Source: Flavobacteriaceae bacterium (GTDB lineage Bacteria; Bacteroidota; Bacteroidia; Flavobacteriales; Flavobacteriaceae). Taken from it: a DNA stretch of 32,000 bases. The DNA is taken from assembly GCA_965224465.1 (NCBI GenBank), contig OZ245049.1, positions 4,380,001-4,412,000 of the forward strand. The letters are read 5' to 3'. Below the pieces are notes generated by a model that saw nothing but the letters and a program-made list of their open reading frames with translations, did not search any database and was not told the origin of the DNA. This document shows, in pieces, positions 11-31,928 of this stretch. Made by a program: the position numbers and the translations under genes. Position 1 is the stretch's first letter. Each line of letters opens with the position of its first letter.

Positions 11-70
11 GCTAGGTGTCCGTTATACCAAATATATTCCCAAGTGATGGTTTAGAATTGGTATTATTAC
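11..70 (+). repeat. Interspersed intergenic repeat, 5' module only (partial copy)
   Basis: gctaggtgtccgttataccaaatatattcccaagtgatggtttagaattggtattatt aligns by eye with the 5' halves of the copies at 16381, 18723 and 27526 (shared ctaggt / ataccaa / ccaagtga / ggtttaga blocks). Lies downstream of the PspC gene stop. Confidence 0.6.
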
Positions 71-3276: not shown

Positions 3277-3530
3277 ATGAACCTCTTTGTGGCAATAGAT
3301 TGGACGTATTAAAATTTTTAGGGTTATCATTTTAAGAGGTCAATGTAACGTGCATTGTTGCCTATTGATGAGATACGTCCAAAGAATACTTTAAATAATA
3401 AGATATTGAATTTAATCCCTTATTTGAGGAGGGGGCGCCTGGGGCTTTCACAAAGTAGATACTGTTTTCTGGAAACATGCTCGTGGATTTGGTAGAGCTT
3501 GTTAATTATAGGTGCTGTAAAATCACCTAT

Positions 3531-3725
3531 AATACCTATTACAATCCAAAATGATCGCTATAAATAGGTTGTTTTACGTTCTAGCGTTGTTAAAAAACAG
3601 AGCAAAAAATAATTCTATTTCTAAACCCTCACTTGGAAATGTATTTGGTATTGCTTCACCAAAGCTCTGCCTCGAACTAAAAAATAGTCTTTCGGAAGTA
3701 TACGACGCACCCTTGGGTAGAGGCT
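3531..3725 (-). repeat. Interspersed intergenic repeat, long form (5' extension + 5' module + 3' module)
   Basis: The reverse complement reads agcctctacccaagggtgcg..atacttccgaaag...aataccaaatacatttccaagtgagggtttagaaatagaattatttttt..aacaacgctagaacgtaaaacaacctatttatagcg..ttttggattgtaataggtatt. Collinear with the copy at 13205-13396. Carries an insertion of about 12 nt (cagagcaaaaaa). Confidence 0.8.
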
Positions 3726-3804
3726 GTTGATTTGCTGCGATGCTTGTTTTTTTTGTGAACTTGTATCATTATAAATTTAATGTTTTTATAAACTTAGGTT
3801 GGTA

Positions 3805-5004: not shown

Positions 5005-5092
5005 CAGAAATAGTTCGTAAAAATTTTAAGAAGACTAGAACTGTGAGATAGGACGTTAAAATTATAAAAATAGTCAGTACCTGGTTGTATCC
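5005..5092 (+). repeat. Possible degenerate copy of the interspersed repeat
   Basis: cagaaatagtt..actagaactgt..gacgttaaaattataaaaatag..ggttgtatcc loosely parallels agaaatagaatt..gctagaacgtaaaacaaactatttatag..ggtgttatcc of the 27.5 kb copy. Similarity is weak. Confidence 0.3.
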
Positions 5093-7308: not shown

Positions 7309-7420
7309 AAGTGAGTTTTGTTTTCGCTAAAATACCAAAATTTATGATTTTACTAAGCAAAAAATGACAATGGTTAACTATATTTGTTCAGGTAAGTTCA
7401 AACACGTTGATATGTCCATT

Positions 7421-7462
7421 TGTATTCCCCAATATATGAAGGGTTTAAATAGGATATATTTT
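7421..7462 (+). repeat. Possible degenerate 5'-module copy of the interspersed repeat
   Basis: tgtattccccaatatatgaagggtttaaataggatatatttt compared with tatttccaagtgaaggtttagaaatagaattatttttt. Lies just upstream of the first S46 gene. Confidence 0.3.
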
Positions 7463-7487: not shown

Positions 7488-9629
7488 ATGAAATTTTTAA
7501 AAGTACTCGTTTTTTTTATCACCTTTAGTGCTGTAGCACAAGAGAATGGAGGGATGTGGATTCCTTCTTTGCTGGATGGATTCAATGAAGCAGAAATGCA
7601 AGACATGGGGATGAAAATGTCTGCCAAGGATATTTATGATGTGAATAATTCTAGTTTAAAAGATGCCATTGTACATTTTGATGGTGGTTGTACATCGGAA
7701 GTTATTTCTAATTCGGGATTATTATTAACAAATCATCATTGTGGATATCGTAGAATTCAACAACACTCAAGTGTAGATCACGATTATTTGAAAGATGGTT
7801 TCTGGGCAAAGGAACTGGGTGACGAGTTAGTAAACGAAGGGATGGCTGTAACGTTTATCAAACGTATAGACGATGTAACGGATGCCGTTTTTGAGGGGAT
7901 TACCGAAGGAATGGACGCAAAATCTAAAAGAGATTTGATAAGTCAAAACATCGAAAAAGCTCAAAAAAACGCTCAAAAAGAAGCCACGGAATCTGTTTAT
8001 GTGAAATCTTTTTTTAAAGGAAATCAATATTTGTTATTTGTAGTTGAGGTATTTAAAGATATTCGTTTGGTAGGAGCACCGCCATCATCTATTGGTAAAT
8101 ATGGAAAAGATACTGATAACTGGATGTGGCCGAGACATACAGGTGATTTTTCACTTTTTAGAATCTACGCAACAAAAGATAATAAACCTGCGGAATACGC
8201 AGCAGACAATGTTCCTTATACACCAAGACACTTTTTACCAATCTCTATGGACGGTGTAGAAGAAGGAGATTTTAGTTTAATTTTTGGATTCCCAGGGCGT
8301 ACCAACGAGTATTTACCTGCGGTAGCTATTGATCAAACAGTAAACGTGTTAAATCCTGCTAAAATTGAGATTCGTGCAAACGCTATTAAAATTGTAGATG
8401 AATTTATGCGAAAGGATCAAGCGATAAAAATTCAATATGCTTCTAAGTTTGCAGGAGTCGCTAATTATTGGAAAAAATGGATCGGAGAAAATACTGGAAT
8501 TAAAAAAGCAAATGCGATTGCAAAAAAAAGAGTATTTGAAAAGGAATTTTCTAAAAGAGTCGCAGCTAAAGATATAGAAGGGTATAAGACATTGTTGTCG
8601 GATTTTGAAACGTTATACAAACAAATTGAAGAAGTAGCACTTGCTAGAGATTACTGGGTAGAGGTTGTGTATCGCAATGTAGAAATGTTAAAAGCTACAT
8701 TTCGTTTGTATCAATTAGAACAAGCCTATGTTAGAGGAGGAGAAGTAGGATTTGAAAAAGCAAGAACAGCTACGTTAAAAGGATTTGAAAAATTCTACAA
8801 GGATTATAGTCCAATAGTAGACAAGCCTGTATTTGAGAAGTTGGTATCCTTATATAAAAATAAGGTGCCGAGTGAATTTGTTCCTGAAAGCGTAAAAAAC
8901 GCAAATATAGTGGCAGTAACAAATGATGTGTTTGCAAATTCTAGATTGCTAAGTTTAGAAGGTGCAAAAGACTTATTGTCTGGAACGGCAGAAGAGGTGA
9001 TGGCTAAGATCAAAGCTGATAAAGCATTTGCTTTTGGTAAAGGATTTCACGAAATGTTCTTTAATGTTATCAATCCAAAATACGGTCAGATAAACGAGAA
9101 AATTGCAGCTACTCAAAAAACATATATGAAAGCATTGATGGAGTTGTTTCCAGAGAAAAAATTCTTTCCAGACGCCAATAGTACTTTGAGAGTTTCTTAC
9201 GGAACTATTCGTAGTACAGATCCTAGAGACGGTGTTACCTATAAATCTAAAACATATTTAGAAGGTGTTATTGCAAAATACAAACCAAATGATTATGAAT
9301 TTGATTTACCTCAAAAATTAATAGACCTTTATAATGCAAAGGATTATGGACCGTATGCAGAATCAAATGGGAAGCTGCCAGTTTGTTTCTTAGGAACAAA
9401 TCACATTACAGGAGGGAATTCTGGAAGTCCAGTAATTGATGCTCATGGTAATTTAATTGGATTGGCATTTGACAGTTCTTGGGAAGGAACTATGTCGGAT
9501 ATGTATTATGATGTAGATATCGTTCGCTGTATCAGTGTTGATATTCGCTATGTCTTGTTTATCATGGATAAATTTGCAGGTGCAGATAGATTGATGAAAG
9601 AACTTAAATTAGTGCATCCAAAGAAATAA
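7488..9629 (+). CDS. S46 family dipeptidyl-peptidase (DPP7/DPP11 family), secreted or periplasmic
   Basis: 713 aa. Signal peptide MKFLKVLVFFITFSAVAQE, GGMWIPSLL start of the mature protein, catalytic His context LLLTNHHCG, catalytic Ser context TGGNSGSPVID (S645). Confidence 0.95.
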   Translation: MKFLKVLVFFITFSAVAQENGGMWIPSLLDGFNEAEMQDMGMKMSAKDIYDVNNSSLKDAIVHFDGGCTSEVISNSGLLLTNHHCGYRRIQQHSSVDHDYLKDGFWAKELGDELVNEGMAVTFIKRIDDVTDAVFEGITEGMDAKSKRDLISQNIEKAQKNAQKEATESVYVKSFFKGNQYLLFVVEVFKDIRLVGAPPSSIGKYGKDTDNWMWPRHTGDFSLFRIYATKDNKPAEYAADNVPYTPRHFLPISMDGVEEGDFSLIFGFPGRTNEYLPAVAIDQTVNVLNPAKIEIRANAIKIVDEFMRKDQAIKIQYASKFAGVANYWKKWIGENTGIKKANAIAKKRVFEKEFSKRVAAKDIEGYKTLLSDFETLYKQIEEVALARDYWVEVVYRNVEMLKATFRLYQLEQAYVRGGEVGFEKARTATLKGFEKFYKDYSPIVDKPVFEKLVSLYKNKVPSEFVPESVKNANIVAVTNDVFANSRLLSLEGAKDLLSGTAEEVMAKIKADKAFAFGKGFHEMFFNVINPKYGQINEKIAATQKTYMKALMELFPEKKFFPDANSTLRVSYGTIRSTDPRDGVTYKSKTYLEGVIAKYKPNDYEFDLPQKLIDLYNAKDYGPYAESNGKLPVCFLGTNHITGGNSGSPVIDAHGNLIGLAFDSSWEGTMSDMYYDVDIVRCISVDIRYVLFIMDKFAGADRLMKELKLVHPKK

Positions 9630-9727: not shown

Positions 9728-11920
9728 ATGAAGTTTTTAAAATTGATGGCTTTTGCTACCGTACTTTTTTTAGTAGGGTGTAAAACTACACAAAGCACAC
9801 AGAGCGCTAAAACAAGCAGCATTGATGCAAAAAAGGCGCAAGGTGGGATGTGGATTCCTTCTTTATTGGAAGGGATGAATGAAGCAGAAATGCAACATTT
9901 AGGGATGAAAATGTCGGCACAGGATATTTACGACGTAAATAATTCTAGTTTAAAAGATGCCATCGTTCATTTTAATGGAGGATGTACTGCCGAGATTATT
10001 TCTTCTCAAGGCTTGTTATTGACAAATCATCACTGTGGATATGGACAAATCCAGTCTCATTCTTCCGTAGATCACGATTATTTACAAGATGGTTTTTGGG
10101 CGATGAACAAATCCGAAGAATTAACAAACCCAGGGATGACGGTTACTTTTATCAATAGAATTGATGATGTGACACTACAAGTTATGGAAGGGGTCTTGGT
10201 ATCTATGGACTTGAGAACACAGCAGCGTTTGATTGATAAAAATATTTCAAAAGTAACCAAGAACGCTTCAAAAGAAGCTTGGCAAAAGGCACATGTAAAA
10301 TCTTTTTACAAAGGGAATCAATATATTTTATTTGTAACCGAGCAGTTTAAAGACATTCGTTTGGTAGGTGCGCCTCCTACATCTATTGGGAAATTTGGAT
10401 CAGATACAGATAACTGGATGTGGCCACGTCACACAGGAGATTTCTCGATGTTTAGAGTGTATGCGGACAAGAATAACCGCCCAGCAGAATATTCAAAAGA
10501 CAATGTTCCTTATACGCCAAAACACTTTTTGCCTATAAGCTTAGACGGTGTTGCTGAAAATGATTTCACATTAGTGTTCGGTTTTCCAGGGAGAACCAAC
10601 GAATATTTACCTGCCGTAGCGATTGACCAAATTGTACATGTTTTAAATCCTGCGAAAATTGACATTCGTGCCAATGCCTTAAAAATTGTAGATGGATTTA
10701 TGCGTAGTGATAAATCGATTAAGATTAAATACGCCTCTAAGTATGCTAGAGTAGCCAATTATTGGAAAAAATGGATAGGAGAGAATCAAGGAATTCAGAA
10801 GTCAAATGCTATTGCTCAAAAAGTAGCCTTGGAAACTGAGTTTTCAAAGCGTGTTGTAGCGAAAGATTTAACTGGGTATACTTCTTTGTTAAGTGATTTT
10901 GAAACCTTATATGCGGAAGTAGAAGAGGTAGCTTTGGCACGTGATTATTGGGTTGAAGTGGTGTACAGAAATGTTGAGTTATTGAATGCGTCGTTCAAAT
11001 TATATCAATTAGAAAATGCTTTTGAGCGTGGAGGTGAAGCTGGATTTAATAAGGCTAGAACTGCTACGTTAAATCGTTTTAAAGGATTTTATAAAAATTA
11101 CAGTCCAAAAGTAGATAAGCCTGTTTTTGCTAGATTGGTGCAAATGTACAAAGAAGGAATGCCTGTAGCATTTTTAAATGAGGTGTTAAAGAATGGAAAT
11201 ATTACTGAAATGGCAGATGATATTTATGCAAATTCAGCATTGGTTTCTCTTGCTAAAGTAAAAATATTATTAGAAGGTTCTCCGCAAGAAGTAATTAAAA
11301 AACTAAATGCGGATGTAGGTTATAAAGTGGGGAAAGCTTTGTCTGCAGATTTTAACAATCTAATCAATCCTAAGTTTAATGAGCTAAACATTAAAATAGC
11401 CGCTGTTCAGAAAAAATACATGAAAGCATTGATGGAGTTGTTTCCAGAAAAACGATTCTTTCCAGATGCCAATAGTACATTACGTGTAACTTATGGACAG
11501 GTAAAAGGGTATGATCCAGTGGATGGTGTTTCTTATGGGAATACAACTTATTTAGGAGGCGTTATGGAGAAATTTGTTCCTGGTGATTATGAGTTTGATG
11601 TGCCGAAAAAATTACAAGAATTGTACAAATCTAAAGACTTTGGGCAGTATGGTGTAAACGGAAAAATGCCAGTGTGTTTTATAGGAACAAATCATACCAC
11701 TGGAGGTAATTCAGGAAGTCCGGCTATAGATGCTCATGGAAACTTAATTGGATTAAATTTTGACCGTGTTTGGGAAGGGACTATGAGCGATTTAAATTAC
11801 GATGCAGCTATCTGTCGCAATATTATGGTGGATGTACGTTATGTATTGTTTATTGTAGATAAATTTGCAGGAGCTAGTCATTTAATTGATGAAATGAAAT
11901 TAGTGCACCCTAAGAAGTAG
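9728..11920 (+). CDS. S46 family dipeptidyl-peptidase paralogue, predicted lipoprotein
   Basis: 730 aa, collinear and highly similar to the upstream gene. Lipobox FLVGC plus a linker of about 20 aa before GGMWIPSLL. Also has LLLTNHHCG and TGGNSGSPAID (S662). Confidence 0.95.
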   Translation: MKFLKLMAFATVLFLVGCKTTQSTQSAKTSSIDAKKAQGGMWIPSLLEGMNEAEMQHLGMKMSAQDIYDVNNSSLKDAIVHFNGGCTAEIISSQGLLLTNHHCGYGQIQSHSSVDHDYLQDGFWAMNKSEELTNPGMTVTFINRIDDVTLQVMEGVLVSMDLRTQQRLIDKNISKVTKNASKEAWQKAHVKSFYKGNQYILFVTEQFKDIRLVGAPPTSIGKFGSDTDNWMWPRHTGDFSMFRVYADKNNRPAEYSKDNVPYTPKHFLPISLDGVAENDFTLVFGFPGRTNEYLPAVAIDQIVHVLNPAKIDIRANALKIVDGFMRSDKSIKIKYASKYARVANYWKKWIGENQGIQKSNAIAQKVALETEFSKRVVAKDLTGYTSLLSDFETLYAEVEEVALARDYWVEVVYRNVELLNASFKLYQLENAFERGGEAGFNKARTATLNRFKGFYKNYSPKVDKPVFARLVQMYKEGMPVAFLNEVLKNGNITEMADDIYANSALVSLAKVKILLEGSPQEVIKKLNADVGYKVGKALSADFNNLINPKFNELNIKIAAVQKKYMKALMELFPEKRFFPDANSTLRVTYGQVKGYDPVDGVSYGNTTYLGGVMEKFVPGDYEFDVPKKLQELYKSKDFGQYGVNGKMPVCFIGTNHTTGGNSGSPAIDAHGNLIGLNFDRVWEGTMSDLNYDAAICRNIMVDVRYVLFIVDKFAGASHLIDEMKLVHPKK

Positions 11921-13058: not shown

Positions 13059-13204
13059 AAAGTTAAATTTTTTGATATATTTTATGTAAAATTACTAAAA
13101 TTCGATAGGGCGTACAACTTAAATTTTACGATTCTGCAAAACAAACGTTTCTGTAACATTTATTGTTCAGGTTGTTTAAATTAAATGATGAGCAAAAATC
13201 AATA

Positions 13205-13396
13205 GCCTCGATCCAAGGGGGCGAGGGATACTTCCAAATGATTATTTTCTGTTTTATGGCTGAACCTAGGAGAATTATTTTTTGTTTTAGCTAGGTTGAA
13301 AACCTAAGGATGGTCTTAGATATCGTTTTGATTTTCAATAACGCTAGAACCTAAAATAAACTATTTATATCGGTTGTTTGGGGTTGTAGTTGGTAT
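13205..13396 (+). repeat. Interspersed intergenic repeat, long form
   Basis: agcctcgatccaagggggcgagggatacttccaaatgattatttt...gctaggttgaaaacctaaggatggtcttagatatcg..aataacgctagaacctaaaataaactatttatatcggttgtttggggttgtagttggtatt. Collinear with the reverse complement of 3531-3725 and with the cores at 16381 and 27526. Confidence 0.8.
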
Positions 13397-13519
13397 TAAA
13401 CCCTTAATGAGGGGTTGGGTGTTCCTTTTAAGTAGCACATTGGGGGGTGTGTGGGTTTTTTAAAAAAGCTATATTAAAATGAGTTTTGAATAGGAGCTCT
13501 TTTTTTTTAGAGGTTTGAT

Positions 13520-16300: not shown

Positions 16301-16380
16301 GTACCTATTTTTGAGACTCAAGATGTTATTGTAGTCTTGTATTCCTGTGTTGTGCTTATTTTTTACACGATTCCCATACT

Positions 16381-16490
16381 AATACCAAATTATATTTCCA
16401 AGTGAAGGTTTAGAAATAGAATTATTTTTTAACAACGCTACAACGTAAAATAAACTATTTATATCGGCTATTTTGGGTTTTAGTTGGTGT
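16381..16490 (+). repeat. Interspersed intergenic repeat, full core copy
   Basis: aataccaaattatatttccaagtgaaggtttagaaatagaattattttttaacaacgctacaacgtaaaataaactatttatatcggctattttgggttttagttggtgt. About 5 mismatches by eye to the copy at 27526 over the central ~70 nt. Confidence 0.85.
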
Positions 16491-16509
16491 ACTATCACAA
16501 TAACTAACC

Positions 16510-17598: not shown

Positions 17599-18722
17599 CT
17601 TAAATTCAACTAATAAACGCAACTTTTCGATTTGATTCTATGATGGTTATATTTTCAAAACAGAAAAGTAGGAAAACCTACCTTTCTTGTCTTGATGGAT
17701 ATGTATCTTACGGTCTCAAATCTCGAAAAAAGAAGTTGTATGAAACACATCACCCAAGCGCAAAGATACACAATTTGTTGCATGTTAAAACAAGGTTATA
17801 AACAGGTTGAGATAGCAGCTGCTATAGGAAAAGACAAGTCTGTTATTAGCAAAGAGATTAAGCGTAATTCAGACAAAAGAAATGGAGTTTACAAGCATGA
17901 ATTAGCCCAAAAAAAGTATGCTAAACGTCATAAAGAAAAGCCTAAAAGAAAACGCTTTACAGAAGATATTCAACAAGCAATAGAGTTGTTATTGCGAGAC
18001 GATTATAGTCCTGAGCAAGTAGTTGGTGTCCTAAAAAAACAAGGTAAAGAAACGGTGTCTATTGAGCGTATATATCAGCATATTAGGGAAGACAAGAGGA
18101 ATGATGGTGATTTACATACACACCTTCGCAGACAGGGAAGGAGATATAGAAAACGTGGCTCATCAAAGGATTCTAGAGGGGTTATAAAGAATCGTATTAG
18201 TATAGAACAACGCCCTGAAGTTGTTGAACAAAGAAATCGATTTGGAGATTTAGAGGTCGATTTAATCATAGGTAAAAACCATAATCAAGCCATACTTACC
18301 GTAAATGATAGAGCTTCTGGAATGCTTAAAATGAAAAAAGTAAGCTCTAAAGAAGCAGTTGTTGTCACTAAAGCTATCAATGAAATATTAGAAGACTGGA
18401 AGCCTTATCTACATACTATAACAGCTGATAATGGAAAAGAATTTGCAGGCCATGAGCAGGTTGCAGAAAATTTATGTATTGATTACTTTTTTGCGCATCC
18501 ATATCACTCTTGGGAAAGAGGATCTAACGAAAATTTAAATGGTTTGATTAGACAATATTTTGCCAAAGGAAGTGACTTTACAAACCTAACAGATCAAAGA
18601 ATCAAAGAGGTAGAAACAAAATTAAATAACAGACCTAGGAAGAGACATAAATATCAAAACCCTATATTTGTAATGGAACAATTATTATTTAACTAAAAGT
18701 TGCGTTTGTGACTTGAATTCAG
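17599..18722 (+). mobile_element. IS30 family insertion sequence (about 1.12 kb)
   Basis: Terminal inverted repeats taaattcaactaataaacgcaactttt (17601-17627) and aaaagttgcgtttgtgacttgaattca (18695-18721) are about 27 bp and imperfect. They enclose a single DDE transposase gene. I could not identify a target duplication. Confidence 0.8.
17740..18696 (+). CDS. IS30 family transposase
   Basis: N-terminal HTH (ITQAQRYTICCMLKQGYKQVEIAAAIGKDKSVISKEIKRN). DDE core DLEVDLI ... ITADNGKEF ... SWERGSNENLNGLIRQYF. The likely start is the ATG at 17740 rather than the TTG at 17692. Confidence 0.9.
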   Translation: MKHITQAQRYTICCMLKQGYKQVEIAAAIGKDKSVISKEIKRNSDKRNGVYKHELAQKKYAKRHKEKPKRKRFTEDIQQAIELLLRDDYSPEQVVGVLKKQGKETVSIERIYQHIREDKRNDGDLHTHLRRQGRRYRKRGSSKDSRGVIKNRISIEQRPEVVEQRNRFGDLEVDLIIGKNHNQAILTVNDRASGMLKMKKVSSKEAVVVTKAINEILEDWKPYLHTITADNGKEFAGHEQVAENLCIDYFFAHPYHSWERGSNENLNGLIRQYFAKGSDFTNLTDQRIKEVETKLNNRPRKRHKYQNPIFVMEQLLFN

Positions 18723-18780
18723 CCTAGGTTAGTGTAATACCAATTGAATTTCCAAGTGACGGTTTAGATGTATTCGTATA
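18723..18780 (+). repeat. Interspersed intergenic repeat, 5' module only, abutting the IS30 right end
   Basis: cctaggttagtgtaataccaattgaatttccaagtgacggtttagatgtattcgtata is homologous to 11-70 and to the 5' halves of the full copies. Confidence 0.7.
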
Positions 18781-19171: not shown

Positions 19172-22100
19172 ATGAAAAAGAATTATACAACAGTACTAAC
19201 AATTGTGTTATGTGCTGTTTTGATTTTGTTTGTTTCACCTGTTGAGGCTCAAAATCACGAAAAACACTACGAGTGTAGTAGGCAGCAAGTTAGGGAGCTT
19301 GTTGGGAGTGTGGATCCAGGTTATTTACCTGCAAATGAATTTCTTAGTTATAGTAAAAGCGGCTCTAAATCGAAAAGTCAAGCGATGCGGTTTTCTGATT
19401 GGTATGGTGTCAATGGTAATGCCTTGGTCACTAAATTAAAAAAAAGTACCGATTACAGTACAGAACTAAAGTCATTATTCGACTTCGATGAATCATACGG
19501 TAAGTATATCTTCTCGAGTAGGAATGTAGAAAGTGTTGCTAGGGCAATGTACTACATTTCTATCTCACATAACGGGGACTATACGAGTGGTATGTACGGT
19601 CTTGTATTTTACTTACACGCTGCTACATATCATGAATTTTATGAAAAATCGATTCATATAGATGATAATGCTATGACGTGGTATGAATATGCATGTTTAT
19701 CCTTTACTCAAAATGCTAAATTGTACGATCTAAAGCCAGAAGCATTGAATATCTTAAGTGAGTTTCTCATCATGGTAGATAATGATAAAATTAGACATAA
19801 GCCAGTAGTTGTTGATATGATTAAAAAAGTCATGTCTAATTTAGTACAAGTAAAAAATTGGAAAAGTTTAGTCAAAAAACCGAAAGTATTGAGAACATAT
19901 TCTGTAATGGCAAACAGAATCTTCTTTTATATGTTTAGAGGTATTGGTAAAGAGGAATTAAAGAAAGGGGAAAAGAAAAGGAAATCAAAAGAACTAGTTA
20001 ATGTTATAGCAAAGGACCCTAATTTTATTAATCTTGTTTCACAAATAGCCCTTGATAAAGAGATAGGTGAAAACAAGAAATTGAAATTCCTTCAAAATAA
20101 TGCCATAGGAGAATTAGTGAGAGCTGCTTCTGAAAAGAAATTAGTTCCATTGTTAGAAAAACATCTTGTAGCTATTTCTAGAAAATACAAACGCTTAGAT
20201 GTAAGAAGGTTAAAGTGTGTAGAGGCTCTTAATAAATATTGTAATTGCGCTAAATATGATTTGTGTAGAGATATGACTGCTTTAAGAAAAGAGTTAGATG
20301 ATAAATTATTCACCCATATATGGTCGTTCGACAATGGTAAAATGTTAATAAAAACCCCTCTTAGCTACCAGGAAGTTGAACCATTGTACTATGCAGCCAA
20401 GGAGGTGGAAGCACAAATGTACAGAATACTTCAAACAGATAAATCGGTACTTGATGACAAGAACGTAACCCTAAATATGGTTGTTTATGGTACATTATCT
20501 GACTATAGCGAATATCAAACTTTTCTTAATAATTTATCTTCCGACAATGGAGGTATGTATATCGAAAAAGATGCAACATTTTATACATACCAACGTACAG
20601 AGCAAGAGAGTGTATATTCTCTCGAGGAGCTATTTCGTCATGAGTATACCCATTATTTACAAGGGAGATATATAGAGAACGGTTTTTGGGGGGATACAGA
20701 TTTTTTTAAAAAAGCGAGACTTACTTGGTTCGAGGAAGGAATGGCTGAATTTATGGCAGGGAGTACCTCTTCAGATGGTATACGTTTTAGACGTAGTATG
20801 ATGAATAATATAAAAAGAGATGGAGCAAATAGAATGCCTGTAAGCGAAACTATCGGAGCAAATTATTCTAGTGGATTCAAGTTTTACAGATATTCATATA
20901 TGATTTGGTTATACTTATATCATAACCAATATCAGGACATGAAAATATTAATGGATCTAATTAAAAAGGATGATATTAGTGCTTTCGATAGAAAAGTTAA
21001 CACTTTAAAAAACTCTTCTGCTTTTCAACGCAATGTAGATACGTTTATAACCAATTCCATTGCTAAAACAGAGGATTGGTGGGTTCCTACCACAGCATAT
21101 CTTTCGCATGATTTGTTAAATGTAAAATCACTTAAAGATATAGCAACTGAATTTAAGAGAATTACAGGGATAAAAAATATTTCTGTTGTTTCGGATGCGA
21201 GTACATCTATTGCAAGATTTGGGATAAAAGGGAAGCTTACAAGCGGTAGATTCAATCAAGAGTTAGATCAGATCATAAAAAAATTAAATGAAGATAAGTA
21301 TATAAACAACTTTGATTTTTTAGTGGGGTATTATAAGAATGTAAATCGGAATACTGCCGATTTTTATATCACAGGGTCTCTAAAAGATAAAAACTCTAGT
21401 GATACTGCAGTATGTGATTTCGAAATAAGTTCACGCGTAGGTATTATAGGGAAAGAGATTGTTGTGACAAGTACATCAACAGGATACATTAATGCTTATC
21501 TATGGGTAGCTCAAGGAGGATACGTACTATCAGAAAAAAACAATACCACAAAAATAAGATTTGATAAAGCAGGAACATATAATATTAGCTTAGAAATAAA
21601 AGATAATAATTCGAGAAAATATAGTAAAACAATAACGAATGCAATAGAGATTTTTGATAAATCAAATACCAAATATTGTATACCAAAAACGAGTGATAGT
21701 TATGCACATATAAAATCGGTTAAATTTGCAGAAATAGAGAATAAAAATGATATGTTTAATACAGATGGTTATATTCATTTTTCTGATCAATTAGGAGTTC
21801 TCGAAAAAGGTAAAAGCAATAATCTTATTGTAGACAATTCTTACAAGATGAAAAGTTCAAGAACTAAAGCGTGGATAGATTGGAATCAAGATGGTACTTT
21901 TGATGCTTCAGAAAAAGTGATGGACAAATCAGGAAAACTTGTTCCTCAGGTGGTTGTAACAACACCGATGGACGCAATAACAGGGGTTACTCGTATGCGT
22001 ATAAGATATATGTTGAGTAAAAATTTAGATCCATGTAAGGATAATTCCTATATAGGAGAAACACATGATTATACACTTATAGTGAAGGGTAGTAGCCTCT

Positions 22101-22453
22101 ATAAAGATGCACTTTCTGCTTCAGTAGCCTCTAATATAAGTAGTAATTCAGCACATTTAAACAGGACAGCCGGTACCGATAATACCAGTGTGAGTAATTA
22201 TCTTGATTATTCTAAAGACGTAAGTTTTAAGGCGTATCCTAATCCTTGTGTAGATAATATAATTCTTGAAATGTCAAAAGAGTATGTTGATGCTGACATC
22301 TCGATACTTAACTCTTTAGGGATGATAGTATTTAAGACAAAGATAAAAGGTCTTAATGCAGTACTTAATATGAGTAGTTTCCCTAGAGGGGTGTATGTTA
22401 TCTCAATAAAAAGTGGTGCTAATATGACAAGTAAACATGTAGTTAAAAAATAA
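19172..22453 (+). CDS. Secreted M9 family collagenase with PKD-like, GEVED and T9SS C-terminal sorting domains
   Basis: 1093 aa. Signal peptide. Zinc site ELFRHEYTHYLQGRY (H490-E-Y-T-H494) and WFEEGMAEFMAG (E522), as in clostridial/Vibrio M9 collagenases. PKD-like segment around VCDFEISS...AGTYNISLEIKD. GEVED-like WIDWNQDGTFD...GETHDYTLIV. C-terminal KAYPNPCVDNIILE...GVYVISIKSG is a T9SS CTD. Confidence 0.9.
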   Translation: MKKNYTTVLTIVLCAVLILFVSPVEAQNHEKHYECSRQQVRELVGSVDPGYLPANEFLSYSKSGSKSKSQAMRFSDWYGVNGNALVTKLKKSTDYSTELKSLFDFDESYGKYIFSSRNVESVARAMYYISISHNGDYTSGMYGLVFYLHAATYHEFYEKSIHIDDNAMTWYEYACLSFTQNAKLYDLKPEALNILSEFLIMVDNDKIRHKPVVVDMIKKVMSNLVQVKNWKSLVKKPKVLRTYSVMANRIFFYMFRGIGKEELKKGEKKRKSKELVNVIAKDPNFINLVSQIALDKEIGENKKLKFLQNNAIGELVRAASEKKLVPLLEKHLVAISRKYKRLDVRRLKCVEALNKYCNCAKYDLCRDMTALRKELDDKLFTHIWSFDNGKMLIKTPLSYQEVEPLYYAAKEVEAQMYRILQTDKSVLDDKNVTLNMVVYGTLSDYSEYQTFLNNLSSDNGGMYIEKDATFYTYQRTEQESVYSLEELFRHEYTHYLQGRYIENGFWGDTDFFKKARLTWFEEGMAEFMAGSTSSDGIRFRRSMMNNIKRDGANRMPVSETIGANYSSGFKFYRYSYMIWLYLYHNQYQDMKILMDLIKKDDISAFDRKVNTLKNSSAFQRNVDTFITNSIAKTEDWWVPTTAYLSHDLLNVKSLKDIATEFKRITGIKNISVVSDASTSIARFGIKGKLTSGRFNQELDQIIKKLNEDKYINNFDFLVGYYKNVNRNTADFYITGSLKDKNSSDTAVCDFEISSRVGIIGKEIVVTSTSTGYINAYLWVAQGGYVLSEKNNTTKIRFDKAGTYNISLEIKDNNSRKYSKTITNAIEIFDKSNTKYCIPKTSDSYAHIKSVKFAEIENKNDMFNTDGYIHFSDQLGVLEKGKSNNLIVDNSYKMKSSRTKAWIDWNQDGTFDASEKVMDKSGKLVPQVVVTTPMDAITGVTRMRIRYMLSKNLDPCKDNSYIGETHDYTLIVKGSSLYKDALSASVASNISSNSAHLNRTAGTDNTSVSNYLDYSKDVSFKAYPNPCVDNIILEMSKEYVDADISILNSLGMIVFKTKIKGLNAVLNMSSFPRGVYVISIKSGANMTSKHVVKK

Positions 22454-22493
22454 ACTATTTATATCGGTTATTTTGGATTGTAATGGTGTTATA
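22447..22493 (+). repeat. Interspersed intergenic repeat, 3' module only
   Basis: aaaataaactatttatatcggttattttggattgtaatggtgttata matches the 3' halves of the copies at 13337, 16441 and 27596. It overlaps the collagenase stop codon (taa, 22451-22453). Confidence 0.7.
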
Positions 22494-22526
22494 CCTGGAG
22501 ACTCTTATGTCTATTCCGAATTAATA

Positions 22527-22554
22527 TCTAAATCACTGGGTGTAAATTGAATTG
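22527..22554 (-). repeat. Short inverted fragment of the repeat 5' module
   Basis: The reverse complement caattcaatttacacccagtgatttaga resembles caattgaatttccaagtgacggtttaga at 18741-18768. Confidence 0.4.
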
Positions 22555-22566
22555 TTTTTTATGTTG

Positions 22567-22615
22567 ACCAAAATTATAAGGATAGCAAAAGCTATTCTTA
22601 TAGTTTTGGTTTTTT
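22567..22615 (+). terminator. Strong rho-independent terminator of the collagenase gene
   Basis: 20-bp stem accaaaattataaggatagc (22567-22586) / gctattcttatagttttggt (22591-22610) with two G-U pairs, loop aaaa, then ttttt. Confidence 0.85.
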
Positions 22616-22890
22616 AGGTGCTATTACGAATGTTGTAGTTGTTTAGTTTTTGGATACGTGGTCTGGAGATGTTTTTCTTCAAGAAGAAGAAGAAGTTTTG
22701 GTGTTTAGATGATGTACTTATAAACAAGATTTACGGTTAAACGTGTCTTTTGACGATCAAATTATTATGAGAATTCTGCATATGCATAGCTTATTTTGGT
22801 GATTAACAGCAAAAAGATTGCAAATTTATAGGTATATTTTGCTATTCTTGTTATATTTAGCTCTTAATCAAACAAATTAACAGCAATATT

Positions 22891-27510: not shown

Positions 27511-27525
27511 ATATGTGTTTTTTTA

Positions 27526-27641
27526 AGGTGTTGTATCAATTTAATTTCCAAGTGATAGTTTAGAAATGGAATTATTTTTTAACAACGCTAGAACGTAAAA
27601 CAAACTATTTATAGCTGTTTTTTTTGGTTTTAATTGGTGTT
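27526..27641 (+). repeat. Interspersed intergenic repeat, full core copy
   Basis: aaggtgttgtatcaatttaatttccaagtgatagtttagaaatggaattattttttaacaacgctagaacgtaaaacaaactatttatagctgttttttttggttttaattggtgtt. Its 3' end touches the stop codon of the convergent nuclease gene. Confidence 0.85.
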
Positions 27642-28437
27642 ATCCAAAAATAGTATTCAGGATCTTTGCCAATCGAATCCCTGCTTTTTGCAATTGATTA
27701 CGTACAGTTCCGAAATTTTTATAGGGATAATCATACCATAATTTATCACCAGACTTGGCACTGTCATATACTTTAATGGCAAGTTTTTGAGTTTCATAGG
27801 TCCAATCTAAAACAGTTCCTTCTTGGATCAATTGCACTTGTTTTTTTGTTAGCTTATCTGCATTGTTAGCTAATTCTACATAGCCCATGTTGTAATGGTC
27901 AATCATATCAGAATCCCATACGCGGTGTAAGTTGGTTCCTTTTCTAAACCATTGGACTTGTATGGTATTTCCTCCTTTGTCTTTACCGCGTCCTACGTGG
28001 AGTGGTTGGTGTAAATCACCGATTAAATGAATCAACATTTTTAAGTAAATAGCTTTGGTCTCTTTTGTTGTGTTGTTGCTTTTTATTTTTTGAATGCAGG
28101 TTTCAATTCCTACTATTAGATCACCTTTTGGGTTTTTTTTTGAGTCTTCGTATGTTGTATTGAATGGGAAATTTACATAATGCCAACTGTAAAAGCTACG
28201 GTATAAGCTGTTCTTGTCAGATTTTATCTCATCTCCAAAAGTAGATACAAAAGCCAAGCTTTTTCCATCTAGTAATTTTGAAATGTTTCGTTTGGCTCGT
28301 TTACTTAAGTATTGTTCGGCTATTTTTCCAGTAGTTCTGTGTCCTGTAGCTCCCCAATCTTCTCCCGTATTGGCAGAACCATGAAAGTGAATGCTTAAAA
28401 ACAAGAGACTTAATCCATATAATTTAAAAATGTTCAT
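27640..28437 (-). CDS. S1/P1 family nuclease (secreted)
   Basis: 265 aa. Signal peptide, then WGATGHRTTGKIAEQYL, SWHYVNFP, HLIGDLHQPLHVG, KGGN and LHRVWD, the metal-ligand blocks of S1/P1 nucleases. Confidence 0.88.
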   Translation of the reverse strand: MNIFKLYGLSLLFLSIHFHGSANTGEDWGATGHRTTGKIAEQYLSKRAKRNISKLLDGKSLAFVSTFGDEIKSDKNSLYRSFYSWHYVNFPFNTTYEDSKKNPKGDLIVGIETCIQKIKSNNTTKETKAIYLKMLIHLIGDLHQPLHVGRGKDKGGNTIQVQWFRKGTNLHRVWDSDMIDHYNMGYVELANNADKLTKKQVQLIQEGTVLDWTYETQKLAIKVYDSAKSGDKLWYDYPYKNFGTVRNQLQKAGIRLAKILNTIFG

Positions 28438-28534: not shown

Positions 28535-28957
28535 ATGAATCAAGAGGGTTTTAAGAAAGTACAAAGTGGGTATGTGGCGTTAGGGGTTCTAACATTACTT
28601 ATTATAGCAATAGGATATGGGACTTTTGTAGTGCATCAAGCAATTGCATTTTTAAGTGTTGCAGTTGTTTTATTGACAAAAGGTTTCTTTTTAGTGAATC
28701 CCAATACTTCTAAGGTGTTGTTGCTTTTTGGAAAATATGTAGGTACGGTAAAAGAGAATGGTTTTTTCTGGGCAAATCCTTTTTATACGAGACGAGATAT
28801 ATCTTTACGAGCGAGTAGCTTTGATAGTGAACGTGTAAAAGTAAACGACAAACTAGGGAATCCAATTATGATTAGTACCATTTTGGTTTGGCGTGTAAAT
28901 AACACATATAAAGCGGCATTTGATGTAAATAACTCACCTTACGCAATAATAATTTAG
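28535..28957 (+). pseudogene. SPFH/band-7 domain protein gene, 3'-truncated by IS insertion
   Basis: The N-terminal ~131 codons look native (TM helices, then FFLVNPNTSKVLLLFGKYVGTVKENGFFWANPFY..SLRASSFDSERVKVNDKLGNPIMISTILVWRVNNTYKAAFDV). From about 28930 the frame runs into the IS left inverted repeat and stops. Full-length homologues are roughly twice as long. Confidence 0.75.
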
Positions 28958-30103
28958 ATTTAAGGAAATAATTGTCTATATTGTTAATAACTTTGAGAAG
29001 AAAAAAGATAGATAATTTTGTTGATTTATATACCGATTATTTGATAAGTTCAAGTTCTTATACTACAGCAACAGGAATGTCTCACTTGCTTTGCATAAAA
29101 CATGATAAAATAACAAGAGCATTGTCAACAGGTGTTTACGACAGTAAATTTCTATGGAAAACGGCAAAAACTTATATTGAAGAATTGACACAATCAAAAG
29201 AAACCGTTATTTTAAGTTTTGATGATTCTATACAAGAAAAACAATATACAAAAGAAAGTGAACTTAACACTTGGCATTTTGACCACGTGTTTGGGAGGTC
29301 TGTAAAAGGAGTTAATTTTCTAACAGCTTTAATAGAAGTAGCCGGTATGCGTTTGCCTTGTGGTGTAGAGTTTATAAAGAAAGACCTTTGGGTAACCGAT
29401 AAAAAAACAGGAAAACAAAAGCGTAAAAGCAGCAAAACCAAGAATGAATTATTTAGAGATATGTTGCGAGAATGTAGTAGCAAAATACGCTTTGATTATG
29501 TTTTGGCTGATAGTTGGTTTTCATCTGTAGAAAATATGATATGCTGTAAAACAGCATTAAAAAATAATTTTATTATTGCTTTAAAAAGCAATCGAAGAGT
29601 AGCCTTATCATTAGAAGATAAGCAAAAAGGAATATACGTGAATATTAAAACATTACAGCCAGAACAGCAGACCGTGGAAGTTTGGTTTGAAAAACTAGAC
29701 TTTCCGCTGTTGCTTACAAAGCAAATTTTCAAAAACGAGAATGGTACAGTCGGCGAGTTGTATTTGGCTTGTAGTGATTTAAGTTTAGCGTATGACCAAA
29801 TAACTACAATCTACAAAAAACGGTGGGCAGTAGAAGAATATCACAAATCGATTAAAAGCAATACAGGATTTGCTAAATCTCCAACAAAAAAAATAGAAAC
29901 TCAAATGAATCATTTTGTCTTATCCATTGTAGCATATATAAAGTTGGAGTGGCTAAAACAAAGGACAGGAAAAAATCACTTTGCCATGAAAACACAAATT
30001 TATTTAGCCGCTCAAAAAGCAGCCTATAATGAACTCAAAAACTTATCAACACCCAAGGTAGCATAATCTCTTTTTTAGAGAAAATTATGCGTAACATGAG
30101 TAA
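28931..30103 (+). mobile_element. IS4-superfamily (IS701-like) insertion sequence, about 1.17 kb
   Basis: Imperfect terminal inverted repeats aactcaccttacgcaataat (28931-28950) and aattatgcgtaacatgagta (30083-30102) enclose one DDE transposase ORF. No target duplication is discernible. Confidence 0.7.
28972..30066 (+). CDS. IS4-superfamily DDE transposase
   Basis: 364 aa from a TTG start (start uncertain). Candidate DDE residues in SFDDS, LADSWF and E288. Exact Y-x2-R-x3-E-x6-K signature in YKKRWAVEEYHKSIK (Y281..K295). Confidence 0.85.
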   Translation: MSILLITLRRKKIDNFVDLYTDYLISSSSYTTATGMSHLLCIKHDKITRALSTGVYDSKFLWKTAKTYIEELTQSKETVILSFDDSIQEKQYTKESELNTWHFDHVFGRSVKGVNFLTALIEVAGMRLPCGVEFIKKDLWVTDKKTGKQKRKSSKTKNELFRDMLRECSSKIRFDYVLADSWFSSVENMICCKTALKNNFIIALKSNRRVALSLEDKQKGIYVNIKTLQPEQQTVEVWFEKLDFPLLLTKQIFKNENGTVGELYLACSDLSLAYDQITTIYKKRWAVEEYHKSIKSNTGFAKSPTKKIETQMNHFVLSIVAYIKLEWLKQRTGKNHFAMKTQIYLAAQKAAYNELKNLSTPKVA

Positions 30104-30107
30104 GTAA

Positions 30108-30692: not shown

Positions 30693-31928
30693 CAGGGCAA
30701 ACTCACACTTTAATGCTTAATACTTTTAACAGGTATGCTTGATTCCAGCCTGCTTTAAGTCTTTTTCCAGCAATACCTTGTTTCTCCGTTTTTTCGTTTC
30801 TCAATAGATTCAGGGCAATTTTCAATAGTATTGAATAGTTTTGAGCTGCATTTTTATTTCTTTTTCTAGAGGCATCCTCTGAGAATGCAACATCCAATGT
30901 CCAATGTAATTTATTCTCTACACCCCAATGAGAACGAATATGACTTTGATGATTTACAGCGGTATCTTTTAAGCTAGAAATGTAATATCTAGTTGCCTTT
31001 TCTGTTTGTTTATCACTGTTTTTGAACTCCCTTATACTTTCTATTTTTATAACTTGAGTCAACTTATTCCATTTATTATCTGCGTTCTTAATAAATTGAA
31101 AATCAGAAATTACGCTACATTTTCTAGTTTCAATTCTTCCATGACCAAGGTCAAAGTCTGTATCTATTTCTATGTTTTTTGAGAATTTGAATTCGTCCTT
31201 TATTTCCTCTAGTAGTTGTTTTTGATTTCCCTTTACGGCAAGTATGTAATTGGCATCATTTTTTATAATCTTATCCGCAATATCAGTTTGAGTTCCCATT
31301 GCGTCTATTGTAATTATATTGCCTTCTATACACAAAGTATCAAGTAATTCCGGGATCGCAGTTATCTCATTAGATTTTTCATTGACTCTAATTTGACCCA
31401 AAACTAAATTGTTTTGATCAGCCCATGCACTCACCATATGTACAGGTGATTTTTTTCCATTTGATTTTGCTCCTCTAAGCGCTTTTCCATCAATAGCTAT
31501 TACCTGCCCTTTTGATATAGTTGAAATAGTTGAAATAGAATTGACCCATTCTATGAAACATGTTTCAAGCTGAGAACTGTCTATCGACGAGAATACCCTG
31601 TTAATAGTGTCTTCTGATGGTATTCCATTTGGTAATTGTAGAAATTTCCTTAAAAAACCTTCTTTTGAACAAGCAAACTCAACCATTTGTTTCCATGTTT
31701 CTGCTCCACAAATGACTGAAATTATCCCAATAAGGAGGATGTCAACCAAGTTGTGCAACTTGTTTATATCGCTTCTAGGGTCTTCTATATTGCCAAAAAT
31801 ACTCATTATTTTACTGTCTGAATTCATATCGTTACCTATCTAATTATAAGTATAATATACTGATAATTAATTAGATAAGCAACTTAAATTCAATGAGATT
31901 AACTTAAAAATAGTATGAGTTTGCCCTG
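30693..31928 (-). mobile_element. ISAs1 family insertion sequence (1236 bp) with intact ends
   Basis: Terminal inverted repeat cagggcaaactca (30693-30705) / tgagtttgccctg (31916-31928) is perfect over 13 bp and extends imperfectly to about 20 bp. Flanked by a perfect 10-bp direct repeat. Confidence 0.9.
30703..31827 (-). CDS. ISAs1 family transposase
   Basis: 374 aa. FGNIEDPRSDINKLHNLVDILLIGIISVICGAETW, AIDGKALRG, ITIDAMGTQTDIA, ILAVKGNQKQL and HWGVENKLHWTLDVAFSEDASR are classic ISAs1/H-repeat transposase blocks. Confidence 0.93.
   Translation of the reverse strand: MNSDSKIMSIFGNIEDPRSDINKLHNLVDILLIGIISVICGAETWKQMVEFACSKEGFLRKFLQLPNGIPSEDTINRVFSSIDSSQLETCFIEWVNSISTISTISKGQVIAIDGKALRGAKSNGKKSPVHMVSAWADQNNLVLGQIRVNEKSNEITAIPELLDTLCIEGNIITIDAMGTQTDIADKIIKNDANYILAVKGNQKQLLEEIKDEFKFSKNIEIDTDFDLGHGRIETRKCSVISDFQFIKNADNKWNKLTQVIKIESIREFKNSDKQTEKATRYYISSLKDTAVNHQSHIRSHWGVENKLHWTLDVAFSEDASRKRNKNAAQNYSILLKIALNLLRNEKTEKQGIAGKRLKAGWNQAYLLKVLSIKV

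Follow-up and report, generated by a model that had tools for sequence, protein, structure and literature searches.

A mosaic family of intergenic hairpin repeats in a Flavobacteriaceae genome and its probable spread as a non-autonomous mobile element

A family of intergenic hairpin repeats was identified in a 32,000-nt stretch of a Flavobacteriaceae genome (assembly GCA_965224465.1, contig OZ245049.1, positions 4,380,001 to 4,412,000; hereafter, the window; G+C 33%). The window holds eight copies or fragments: four are full, one is a mini copy, two are solo arms (one 5′, one 3′) and one is diverged. These repeats form a genuine family with defined boundaries; orthologous sites in relatives are empty, and a congener carries copies at non-orthologous positions. 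The best explanation is a non-autonomous mobile hairpin repeat of the class that includes MITEs (miniature inverted-repeat transposable elements), REPIN and ERIC, which expanded in this lineage and constitutes an uncatalogued family; we give this reading a probability of roughly 0.6. An earlier note, made from the sequence alone, had described an interspersed intergenic repeat with a 110-nt core in at least seven copies. That core is a deletion derivative of a 165–200-nt rod-like hairpin, and the family is mosaic, with copies differing in the modules present.

A nhmmer profile built from the four full cores was run over the window, together with a long-form profile and a covariance model (CM); copy counts and densities refer to this 32-kb window. 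All seven copies of the earlier note were recovered by nhmmer at coordinates that had been correct to within about 5–10 nt, and repeat finding and the CM agreed with this result (Table 1). Full copies gave nhmmer E-values of about 1e-28 to 1e-31 and CM scores of 87–112 bits. A diverged copy (22513–22625) and an additional module, termed U, had been overlooked. Two regions proposed as degenerate copies did not hold up: neither 5005–5092 nor 7421–7462 had an nhmmer match at E ≤ 10 or CM support (7411–7460, E 1.6), and 7431–7462 is part of the duplicated upstream region of two S46 peptidase paralogues. As had been reported, copies occur in both orientations (c3 on the minus strand, the other window copies on the plus strand), and c16 and c27 are nearly identical in their centres, with 18 of 113 aligned positions differing, approximately three of them central. 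The flanks were also said to be unlike between loci; indeed, profile matches end at the element edges, and these edges of homology are sharp (ATACCAA on the left, TTGGTRT(TA) on the right).

Table 1. Coordinates of the repeat copies, associated modules and other features. Unless a locus in another genome is named, positions are those of the window.
Feature	Coordinates	Strand	Details
c0, mini copy	23..68	+	46-nt hairpin; nhmmer match 26–69, E 2.2e-5; CM E 0.0015
c3, full short form (A + C1 + C2)	3528..3654	-	nhmmer match 3530–3651, E 1.5e-28; CM 112 bits
Module U, 5′ extension of c3	3655..3735	-	nhmmer E 1.3e-23; pairwise alignment
Module U, second copy, directly upstream of c13	13196..13274	+	nhmmer E 4.6e-22; alignment
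c13 (tail of A + B + C1 + C2; without 5′ arm)	13262..13401	+	nhmmer match 13290–13398, E 3.3e-28; CM 92 bits; long-form profile positions 38–188, E 3.8e-25
c16 (A + C1 + C2)	16380..16493	+	nhmmer match 16382–16491, E 1.9e-31; CM 92 bits
c18, solo 5′ arm	18735..18771	+	nhmmer match 18737–18771, E 2.2e-4; long-form profile E 3.6e-6
c22, solo 3′ arm	22447..22490	+	nhmmer E 6.6e-7
Diverged A + B copy	22513..22625	+	long-form profile positions 3–96, E 3.2e-5; alignment; CM match 22569–22608, E 0.007
c27 (A + C1 + C2)	27531..27644	+	nhmmer match 27535–27642, E 2.8e-28; CM 87 bits
GGTGT-like motif, window sites	14–18; 3665–3670 (-); 18726–18734; 27524–27529
GGTGT-like motif, locus L015	about 1478–1483
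IS30-like insertion sequence	17603–18719		334-aa open reading frame 17692–18696, HTH_38; 25-bp inverted repeats AATTCAACTAATAAACGCAACTTTT, 88% complementary
Insertion sequence with DDE_5/DDE_Tnp_1 transposase	28535–30105 region		transposase 28972–30066; imperfect inverted ends near 28923 and 30105
ISAs1-family insertion sequence	30694–31925		transposase 30703–31827 (-), DDE_Tnp_1_assoc + DDE_Tnp_1; both ends CAGGGCAAACTCA...
Flavo-1, congener locus L015	3732–3808		genuine; 57–61 bits over the four loci
Flavo-1, congener locus L016	3022–3097		as above
Flavo-1, congener locus L018	7560–7633		as above
Flavo-1, congener locus L020	7137–7212		as above

The long form of the element (165–200 nt) was seen in two metagenome-assembled genomes (MAGs), NORP129 and NORP167. 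It consists of module A (TAATACCAA...TTTCCAAGTGACGGTTTAGAAATGGAATTATTTTTT), module B (GTTTTAGCTAGG...GGATAGCCTTAGCTATCG...TTTTTT), module C1 (AACAACGCTAGAACGTAAAA) and module C2 (AAACTATTTATATCGGTCATTTTGGRTTKTAWTTGGTRTTA), joined in some copies only by an optional side module, D, of ~23 nt. The whole is a single long imperfect palindrome that is predicted to fold into a rod hairpin: the 5′ arm (A) pairs with the 3′ arm (C2), GTTTTAGCTAG at the start of module B pairs with CTAGAACG of C1 to give an inner stem, and the remainder of B forms an apical hairpin, GATAGC-CTTA-GCTATC, preceded by an A run and followed by a T run. The earlier note had seen inverted symmetry at the ends and called it weak; the symmetry stands, but the qualifier does not, since the entire 5′ arm pairs with the entire 3′ arm. 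The terminal inverted repeats, TAATACCAA / TTGGTATTA, measure 9–20 bp and continue into a terminal stem of 12–20 bp. Predicted RNA folding energies were −47.7 kcal/mol (z −6.6) for the copy at locus L004 and −48.2 kcal/mol (z −5.2) for that at L015, and CM scores at the MAG loci ranged from 132 to 185 bits. Over nine aligned copies, 90.9% of the cells in 57 pairs were standard, compared with 38%–52% when the partners were slid by 1–3 columns. Both-sided changes were found at five pairs, for example between UA and AU and between CG and AU in the terminal stem; the termini vary via compensatory changes. The internal loop, GGTTTAG opposite TATATCGG, is nearly invariant. A small open reading frame in the long form (MELFFVLARQKI) was considered and rejected, as its ATG is missing in half of the copies.

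The window copies are internal-deletion or mosaic derivatives of this form. Module B is deleted in c16, c27 and c3, with deletion end points that differ between copies and lie between T runs; c3 retains only GCTCTG of this apical module and still has a rod-like predicted fold (−26.2 kcal/mol, z −3.0). In c0, the 5′ arm through GGTTTAGAA is fused straight to the 3′ terminus TTGGTATTA. Module U (~80 nt) is common only to the 5′ sides of c3 and c13, and no further copy was found by nhmmer in the 215 kb searched. Its sequence reads AGCCTC.A.CCAAGGG.GCG..G.ATACTTCC.AA.GA.TATTTT...

The distribution of the element among relatives suggested turnover of copies. HtpG encoded in the window shares 84% identity with Lutibacter HtpG and 96% with the HtpG of North Pond aquifer MAGs of uncultured Flavobacteriaceae; the congeners with 96% identity include NORP167 (locus L020), with its HtpG on NVRM01000123. 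Species-representative genomes were scanned with a pattern, and 10 of the 16 matches listed were attributable to chance. Among the matches listed, the element was present on at least four NORP167 contigs, adjoining rplT, ahpC, an alkaline phosphatase gene, sbcD and a glycosyltransferase gene, and on at least one NORP129 contig; a metagenome scan added one JGI contig with the 3′ arm. In contrast to these non-orthologous sites, approximately 75 kb of window-syntenic DNA from five relatives (L018, L020, L022, L024 and L025) contained no copy at E < 0.1–1. The htpG terminator is conserved in all relatives and the DNA beyond it differs in each genome; L018 and L020 keep this terminator without the element there. 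The FabH–nitroreductase spacer contains a copy (c13) in the window only. The nuclease gene next to c27 ends at the same residue with or without the copy, its C-terminus having the same length in L018, which lacks the element. Copies are 73%–90% identical to each other, no more within a genome than between genomes, and the flanking intergenic DNA is unalignable between these genomes. The simplest reading of this pattern is that copies derived from a conserved source continue to turn over and that the family expanded in the window lineage; functional conservation is the alternative. The earlier suggestion of a MITE-like element, a REP/Correia-like element or a structured RNA is supported insofar as this is an interspersed hairpin repeat with empty orthologous sites in congeners.

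All copies are intergenic and lie between convergent or co-directional genes or at gene 3′ ends, never between divergent genes. Pfam searches bore out the neighbours named earlier for three of them (HtpG/bestrophin, SusD/S1-P1 nuclease, and DUF4442 next to an open reading frame without a Pfam match). The htpG terminator lies ~80 nt upstream of copy c16, and the stop codon of the bestrophin gene is 16 nt away from the copy. Copy c27 starts ~20 nt past the SusD terminator and at its 3′ end runs up against 27640–27642, where the convergent S1-P1 nuclease gene has its stop codon; in both c27 and the L004 copy, the element stops precisely at the TTA (TAA) with which a convergent gene terminates. 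The L010 copy, like c16 and c27, lies just downstream of the intrinsic terminator of the upstream gene. Copy c13 is situated between two minus-strand genes, encoding FabH and a nitroreductase, and is antisense to both. An M9 collagenase-like gene (19172–22453) takes its final two codons and its TAA stop from the first bases of c22. The earlier note had placed one copy between a stop codon and its terminator; the presumed terminator (22567–22610) proved to be the apical hairpin of the overlooked diverged copy. This hairpin looks like the intrinsic terminator of the collagenase gene. Its 20-bp stem leads into a T run, and nothing else that resembles a terminator follows the gene. Within the element, intrinsic-terminator shape is confined to the apical hairpin of module B: among the copies, the terminator scan called this hairpin at 22567–22610 only, and c16, c27 and c3 lack B.

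Several observations concern the surroundings of the collagenase gene. Copy c18 begins 16 nt after the right inverted repeat of the IS30-like element. Copies c18 (5′ arm) and c22 (3′ arm) flank the collagenase gene in the correct order and orientation, with ~35 nt of the middle of the element missing; this arrangement could be a coincidence, a split copy or a cargo-carrying composite. The segment 17554–22646, comprising the IS30-like element and the M9 collagenase-like T9SS gene, is absent from relatives. Homology with L022 resumes at 22647, with the junction ~25–35 nt past the diverged copy. Since it resumes inside the 3′ end of the L022 NUDIX gene, the window keeps only a NUDIX remnant, in the 22647–22800 region.

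The clustering of copies at rearrangement junctions, with fragments bordering the lineage-specific segment at 17.5–22.6 kb, could also be taken to mean that the repeats do not move and were left in hypervariable 3′ intergenic DNA by local segmental duplication or as scars of recombination, and the additional 80-nt module that c3 and c13 share beyond the element fits such an origin. The same element, however, occurs with the same boundaries beside unrelated housekeeping genes in other genomes, and its sharp homology edges coincide with the hairpin ends in most copies. This origin is therefore considered very improbable.

The two strands of the element are not equivalent. In the rod, the element strand contains 59 G-T cells (28 columns) versus 9 A-C cells (7 columns), and when the arms were aligned as a plain inverted repeat, without pairing bias, the numbers were 45 G-T versus 12. 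Given that the G-T wobbles sit on the element strand, the complementary strand is much less stable as RNA (L004, −36.8 kcal/mol; L015, −27.6 kcal/mol). With DNA parameters, the difference at L015 was only slight (−22.2 versus −18.6 kcal/mol on the other strand). Replication-strand mutation bias after insertion does not suffice to explain the excess of G-T: the L004 and L015 loci have opposite GC skew and show the same asymmetry, and most wobble positions are common to all copies. The asymmetry is thus a property of the family consensus rather than of local mutation bias. Within the window itself, GC skew stays positive across all 4-kb segments (up to 0.25) regardless of gene orientation, and the plus strand is therefore probably the leading-strand sequence. 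The foldable strand lies on this G-rich strand in seven of the eight window copies.

Such one-stranded wobbles would also be expected of a functional cis-acting RNA kept by selection, such as a 3′-end stabiliser, an RNase III or other processing site, a protein platform or a (bidirectional) terminator. The rod, with its conserved internal loop, would then be carried in 3′ untranslated regions or in transcripts arising by read-through or in antisense. The G-U wobbles are nearly one-stranded, the asymmetry is much larger in RNA than in DNA energies, and the internal blocks are better conserved than the termini across species whose neutral intergenic DNA is unalignable. Four of the five copies between co-directional genes share the direction of those genes; in addition, the apical hairpin with its A and T runs is terminator-shaped and is the sole such hairpin after the collagenase gene. 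On the other hand, the orthologous genes in five relatives do without the element. Because c16, c27 and the L010 copy follow existing intrinsic terminators, transcription of the sense strand should be low. At c16 and c27, the strand transcribed from the nearest gene would be the one that folds poorly. Large parts of the rod are gone from the window copies, whose predicted folds are no more stable than those of shuffled sequence. Copy c13 is antisense to both neighbours, and the family shows no conserved promoter-like sequence. On balance, we regard a selected cis-acting RNA as an unlikely but still live explanation of the family.

An independent small RNA (sRNA) gene present in multiple copies, with its own promoter and terminator, would account for a long form that is stable, strand-specific, of typical sRNA size and conserved across species. 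However, the flanks are unconserved, inspection by eye revealed no Bacteroidota-type promoter (TTTG ... TAnnTTTG) at a constant position, and the rod has no terminal terminator; moreover, copies are truncated in various ways, two of them abut or overlap stop codons of neighbouring genes, and there is no Rfam match. Sigma-70-type promoter content was not above that of shuffled sequence. An sRNA gene is hardly credible.

The ends of the element bear on how it might have moved. A classical MITE, i.e., an internally deleted derivative of an insertion sequence (IS) moved by a DDE transposase via TAATACCAA / TTGGTATTA with a short target duplication, would be small and non-coding with 9–20-bp terminal inverted repeats and would occur in many dispersed copies in both orientations, as observed. 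Internal deletion with retention of both ends (c0, c16, c27 and c3) is likewise in line with this model, as are the TA that usually follows the right end and the richness of the genome in ISs, three of which lie within the final 15 kb of the window (Table 1). Nevertheless, flanking direct repeats are not consistent among copies, TA is present on the left flank in only 3–4 of 10 copies, and the ends of the IS30-like, DDE_5 and ISAs1 elements are unrelated to those of the repeat. The termini are the least conserved part, compensating rather than fixed, and strand asymmetry is unexpected if only double-stranded DNA is recognised. As no target-site duplication was evident, we consider a classical DDE-type MITE quite unlikely. 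Copy c16 alone has ACTA on both sides, which may be due to chance. A GGTGT-like motif, equal to the element's own 3′ terminus, was observed within 10 nt upstream of the 5′ end in 5 of 10 copies and may be what is left of a neighbouring copy or else reflect preference for a target. The Band_7/SPFH gene at 28535–28957 is apparently truncated by the DDE_5/DDE_Tnp_1 IS.

If the family is indeed a mobile hairpin repeat without autonomy, as preferred here, new copies would be made by an enzyme that acts in trans from another locus and recognises the folded single strand or the conserved internal loop rather than simple terminal inverted repeats. Recognition of a folded single strand fits better than terminal-repeat recognition because the termini are variable and compensating and the internal blocks near invariant. 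We lean tentatively towards a route dependent on hairpins or single-stranded DNA, of the HUH/RAYT type, although this route is itself doubtful; copying by a DDE transposase with target duplication seems less likely again. Copies might survive mainly at gene 3′ ends because insertions there would be least harmful, and copies transcribed by read-through could form RNA hairpins and incidentally affect 3′-end stability or termination.

Several results weigh against a mobile repeat. Target-site duplications, suggested earlier as a check, were not consistent in the flanks of 10 copies upon inspection, and no candidate mobilising gene was found: the ends of the three window ISs are unlike those of the element, and the neighbours of the MAG copies are housekeeping genes. 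In the alignment of 13 copies, the best-conserved parts are internal blocks (the core of A, C1 and the start of C2) and the least conserved are the termini. The contribution of the G-U wobbles to the stability of the fold is far greater in RNA than in DNA; taken together, internal conservation and RNA-favouring wobbles fit a functional RNA or protein-binding role at least equally well. The copies differ from one another by 10%–25%, and the expansion is therefore not recent. With coding DNA of the nearest relatives only ~85% identical, no filled/empty pair could be aligned across a junction. Window copies c16, c27 and c13 fold poorly (z −0.2 to −1.6), with c3 marking the other end of the window range; the window copies may be inert relics. 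Finally, the orientation bias of seven of eight copies is suggestive but not significant (two-sided binomial p = 0.07, calculated by hand).

With respect to its wider significance, the repeat family by itself opens no long-standing question. The presence of the intact long form in one genome set and of decayed forms in another makes it useful for studying spread and erosion. The family marks rearrangement-prone 3′ intergenic regions and can break metagenome assemblies; in at least three cases, it has given a stop codon or a terminator-like hairpin to a neighbouring gene. Other repeats were observed in these genomes. The tandem S46 peptidase paralogues (7488–9629 and 9728–11920) share 74%–78% DNA identity, and their duplication is also present in L018 and L020. 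The S46–FabH spacer of NORP167 (L020 7304–7879) contains 4.3 tandem repeats of a 131-bp unit (94% matches), which represents a separate repeat family; part of this unit (CTCATCTAATATCTCAATACTCAC) is similar to the DNA that flanks the L004 copy of the element on the left.

Comparison with catalogued families supported the earlier statement that the element has no name. Rfam 15 gave no match in the window at the gathering threshold, and permissive searches (c16, L012, L004 and five MAG loci) returned chance-level matches only. The possibility raised earlier that it is a fragment of a known tRNA or Rfam family was not borne out, with no tRNA or tmRNA in the window and no Rfam family assigned. Plasmid and phage collections yielded no blastn match, pattern scanning of IMG/VR viral contigs yielded none, and literature searches on MITEs or REPINs of Flavobacteriaceae brought up nothing about this element. 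Integron attC sites (RYYYAAC ... GTTRRRY) differ from the element, which ends in ATACCAA/TTGGTRT, is best conserved in its centre and has housekeeping genes rather than cassettes as neighbours. Unlike in PATE derived from IS200/IS605, the ends of the element pair with each other instead of forming hairpins of their own, and the left flanks share no motif.

ERIC, Correia and bcr1-type MITEs are imperfect palindromes of 127–160 nt. The present element resembles them in size, in an imperfect palindrome that would fold as co-transcribed RNA, in intergenic location in both orientations, in internally deleted variants and in possible side effects on mRNA stability or termination. It differs in that no TA or other target duplication was seen and the termini are less conserved than the internal blocks. 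With respect to the features of DDE-type MITEs, the element is short and non-coding (46–200 nt) with terminal inverted repeats, and no target duplication is evident.

REPIN/BIME systems are RAYT-associated REP doublets, and mosaic REP clusters occur in enterobacteria and pseudomonads. The element shares with them an intergenic hairpin of two inverted arms, solo arms (c18, c22 and L017), mosaic modules, the lack of a visible target duplication, sites at gene 3′ ends or between convergent genes and non-orthologous persistence across related species. In contrast to REP/REPIN sequences, no conserved GTAG/CGTC head was present at either arm end in the 13-copy alignment, the arms measure ~50 nt as opposed to 20–40 nt, and the unit of 165–200 nt includes a structured apical domain. 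To our knowledge, REPIN-RAYT systems have been described mainly in Proteobacteria and not in Bacteroidota. A REPIN-like system of Bacteroidota maintained across species, in which a domesticated HUH/RAYT-like or other hairpin-recognising enzyme would copy single-stranded DNA with the foldable strand on the lagging-strand template, or else a functional RNA platform in 3′ untranslated regions of Flavobacteriaceae, would be a consequential but improbable outcome.

Within the family Flavobacteriaceae, the closest parallel is Flavo-1 (RF01705), likewise a hairpin with an A/T-rich apex that is scattered in intergenic DNA and has no known function. In Flavobacterium psychrophilum, Flavo-1 matches lie sense or antisense in transcribed regions, and many are untranscribed (PMC9723704). 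The sequence and structure of Flavo-1 differ from those of the element, and a direct test of membership failed: the best overlap with the element reached 16.8 bits (E 0.43), the gathering score being 42, and the window contained no Flavo-1 match. Genuine Flavo-1 copies are frequent in congeners (Table 1); one of them sits in the S46–FabH spacer, and that spacer is only 130 nt long in the window. Much work exists on interspersed hairpin repeats of Proteobacteria, Neisseria and Firmicutes, but, as far as we know, such repeats are hardly described in Flavobacteriaceae, for which Flavo-1 is the only catalogued analogue known to us. The family described here provides a second example after Flavo-1, larger and clearly mosaic.

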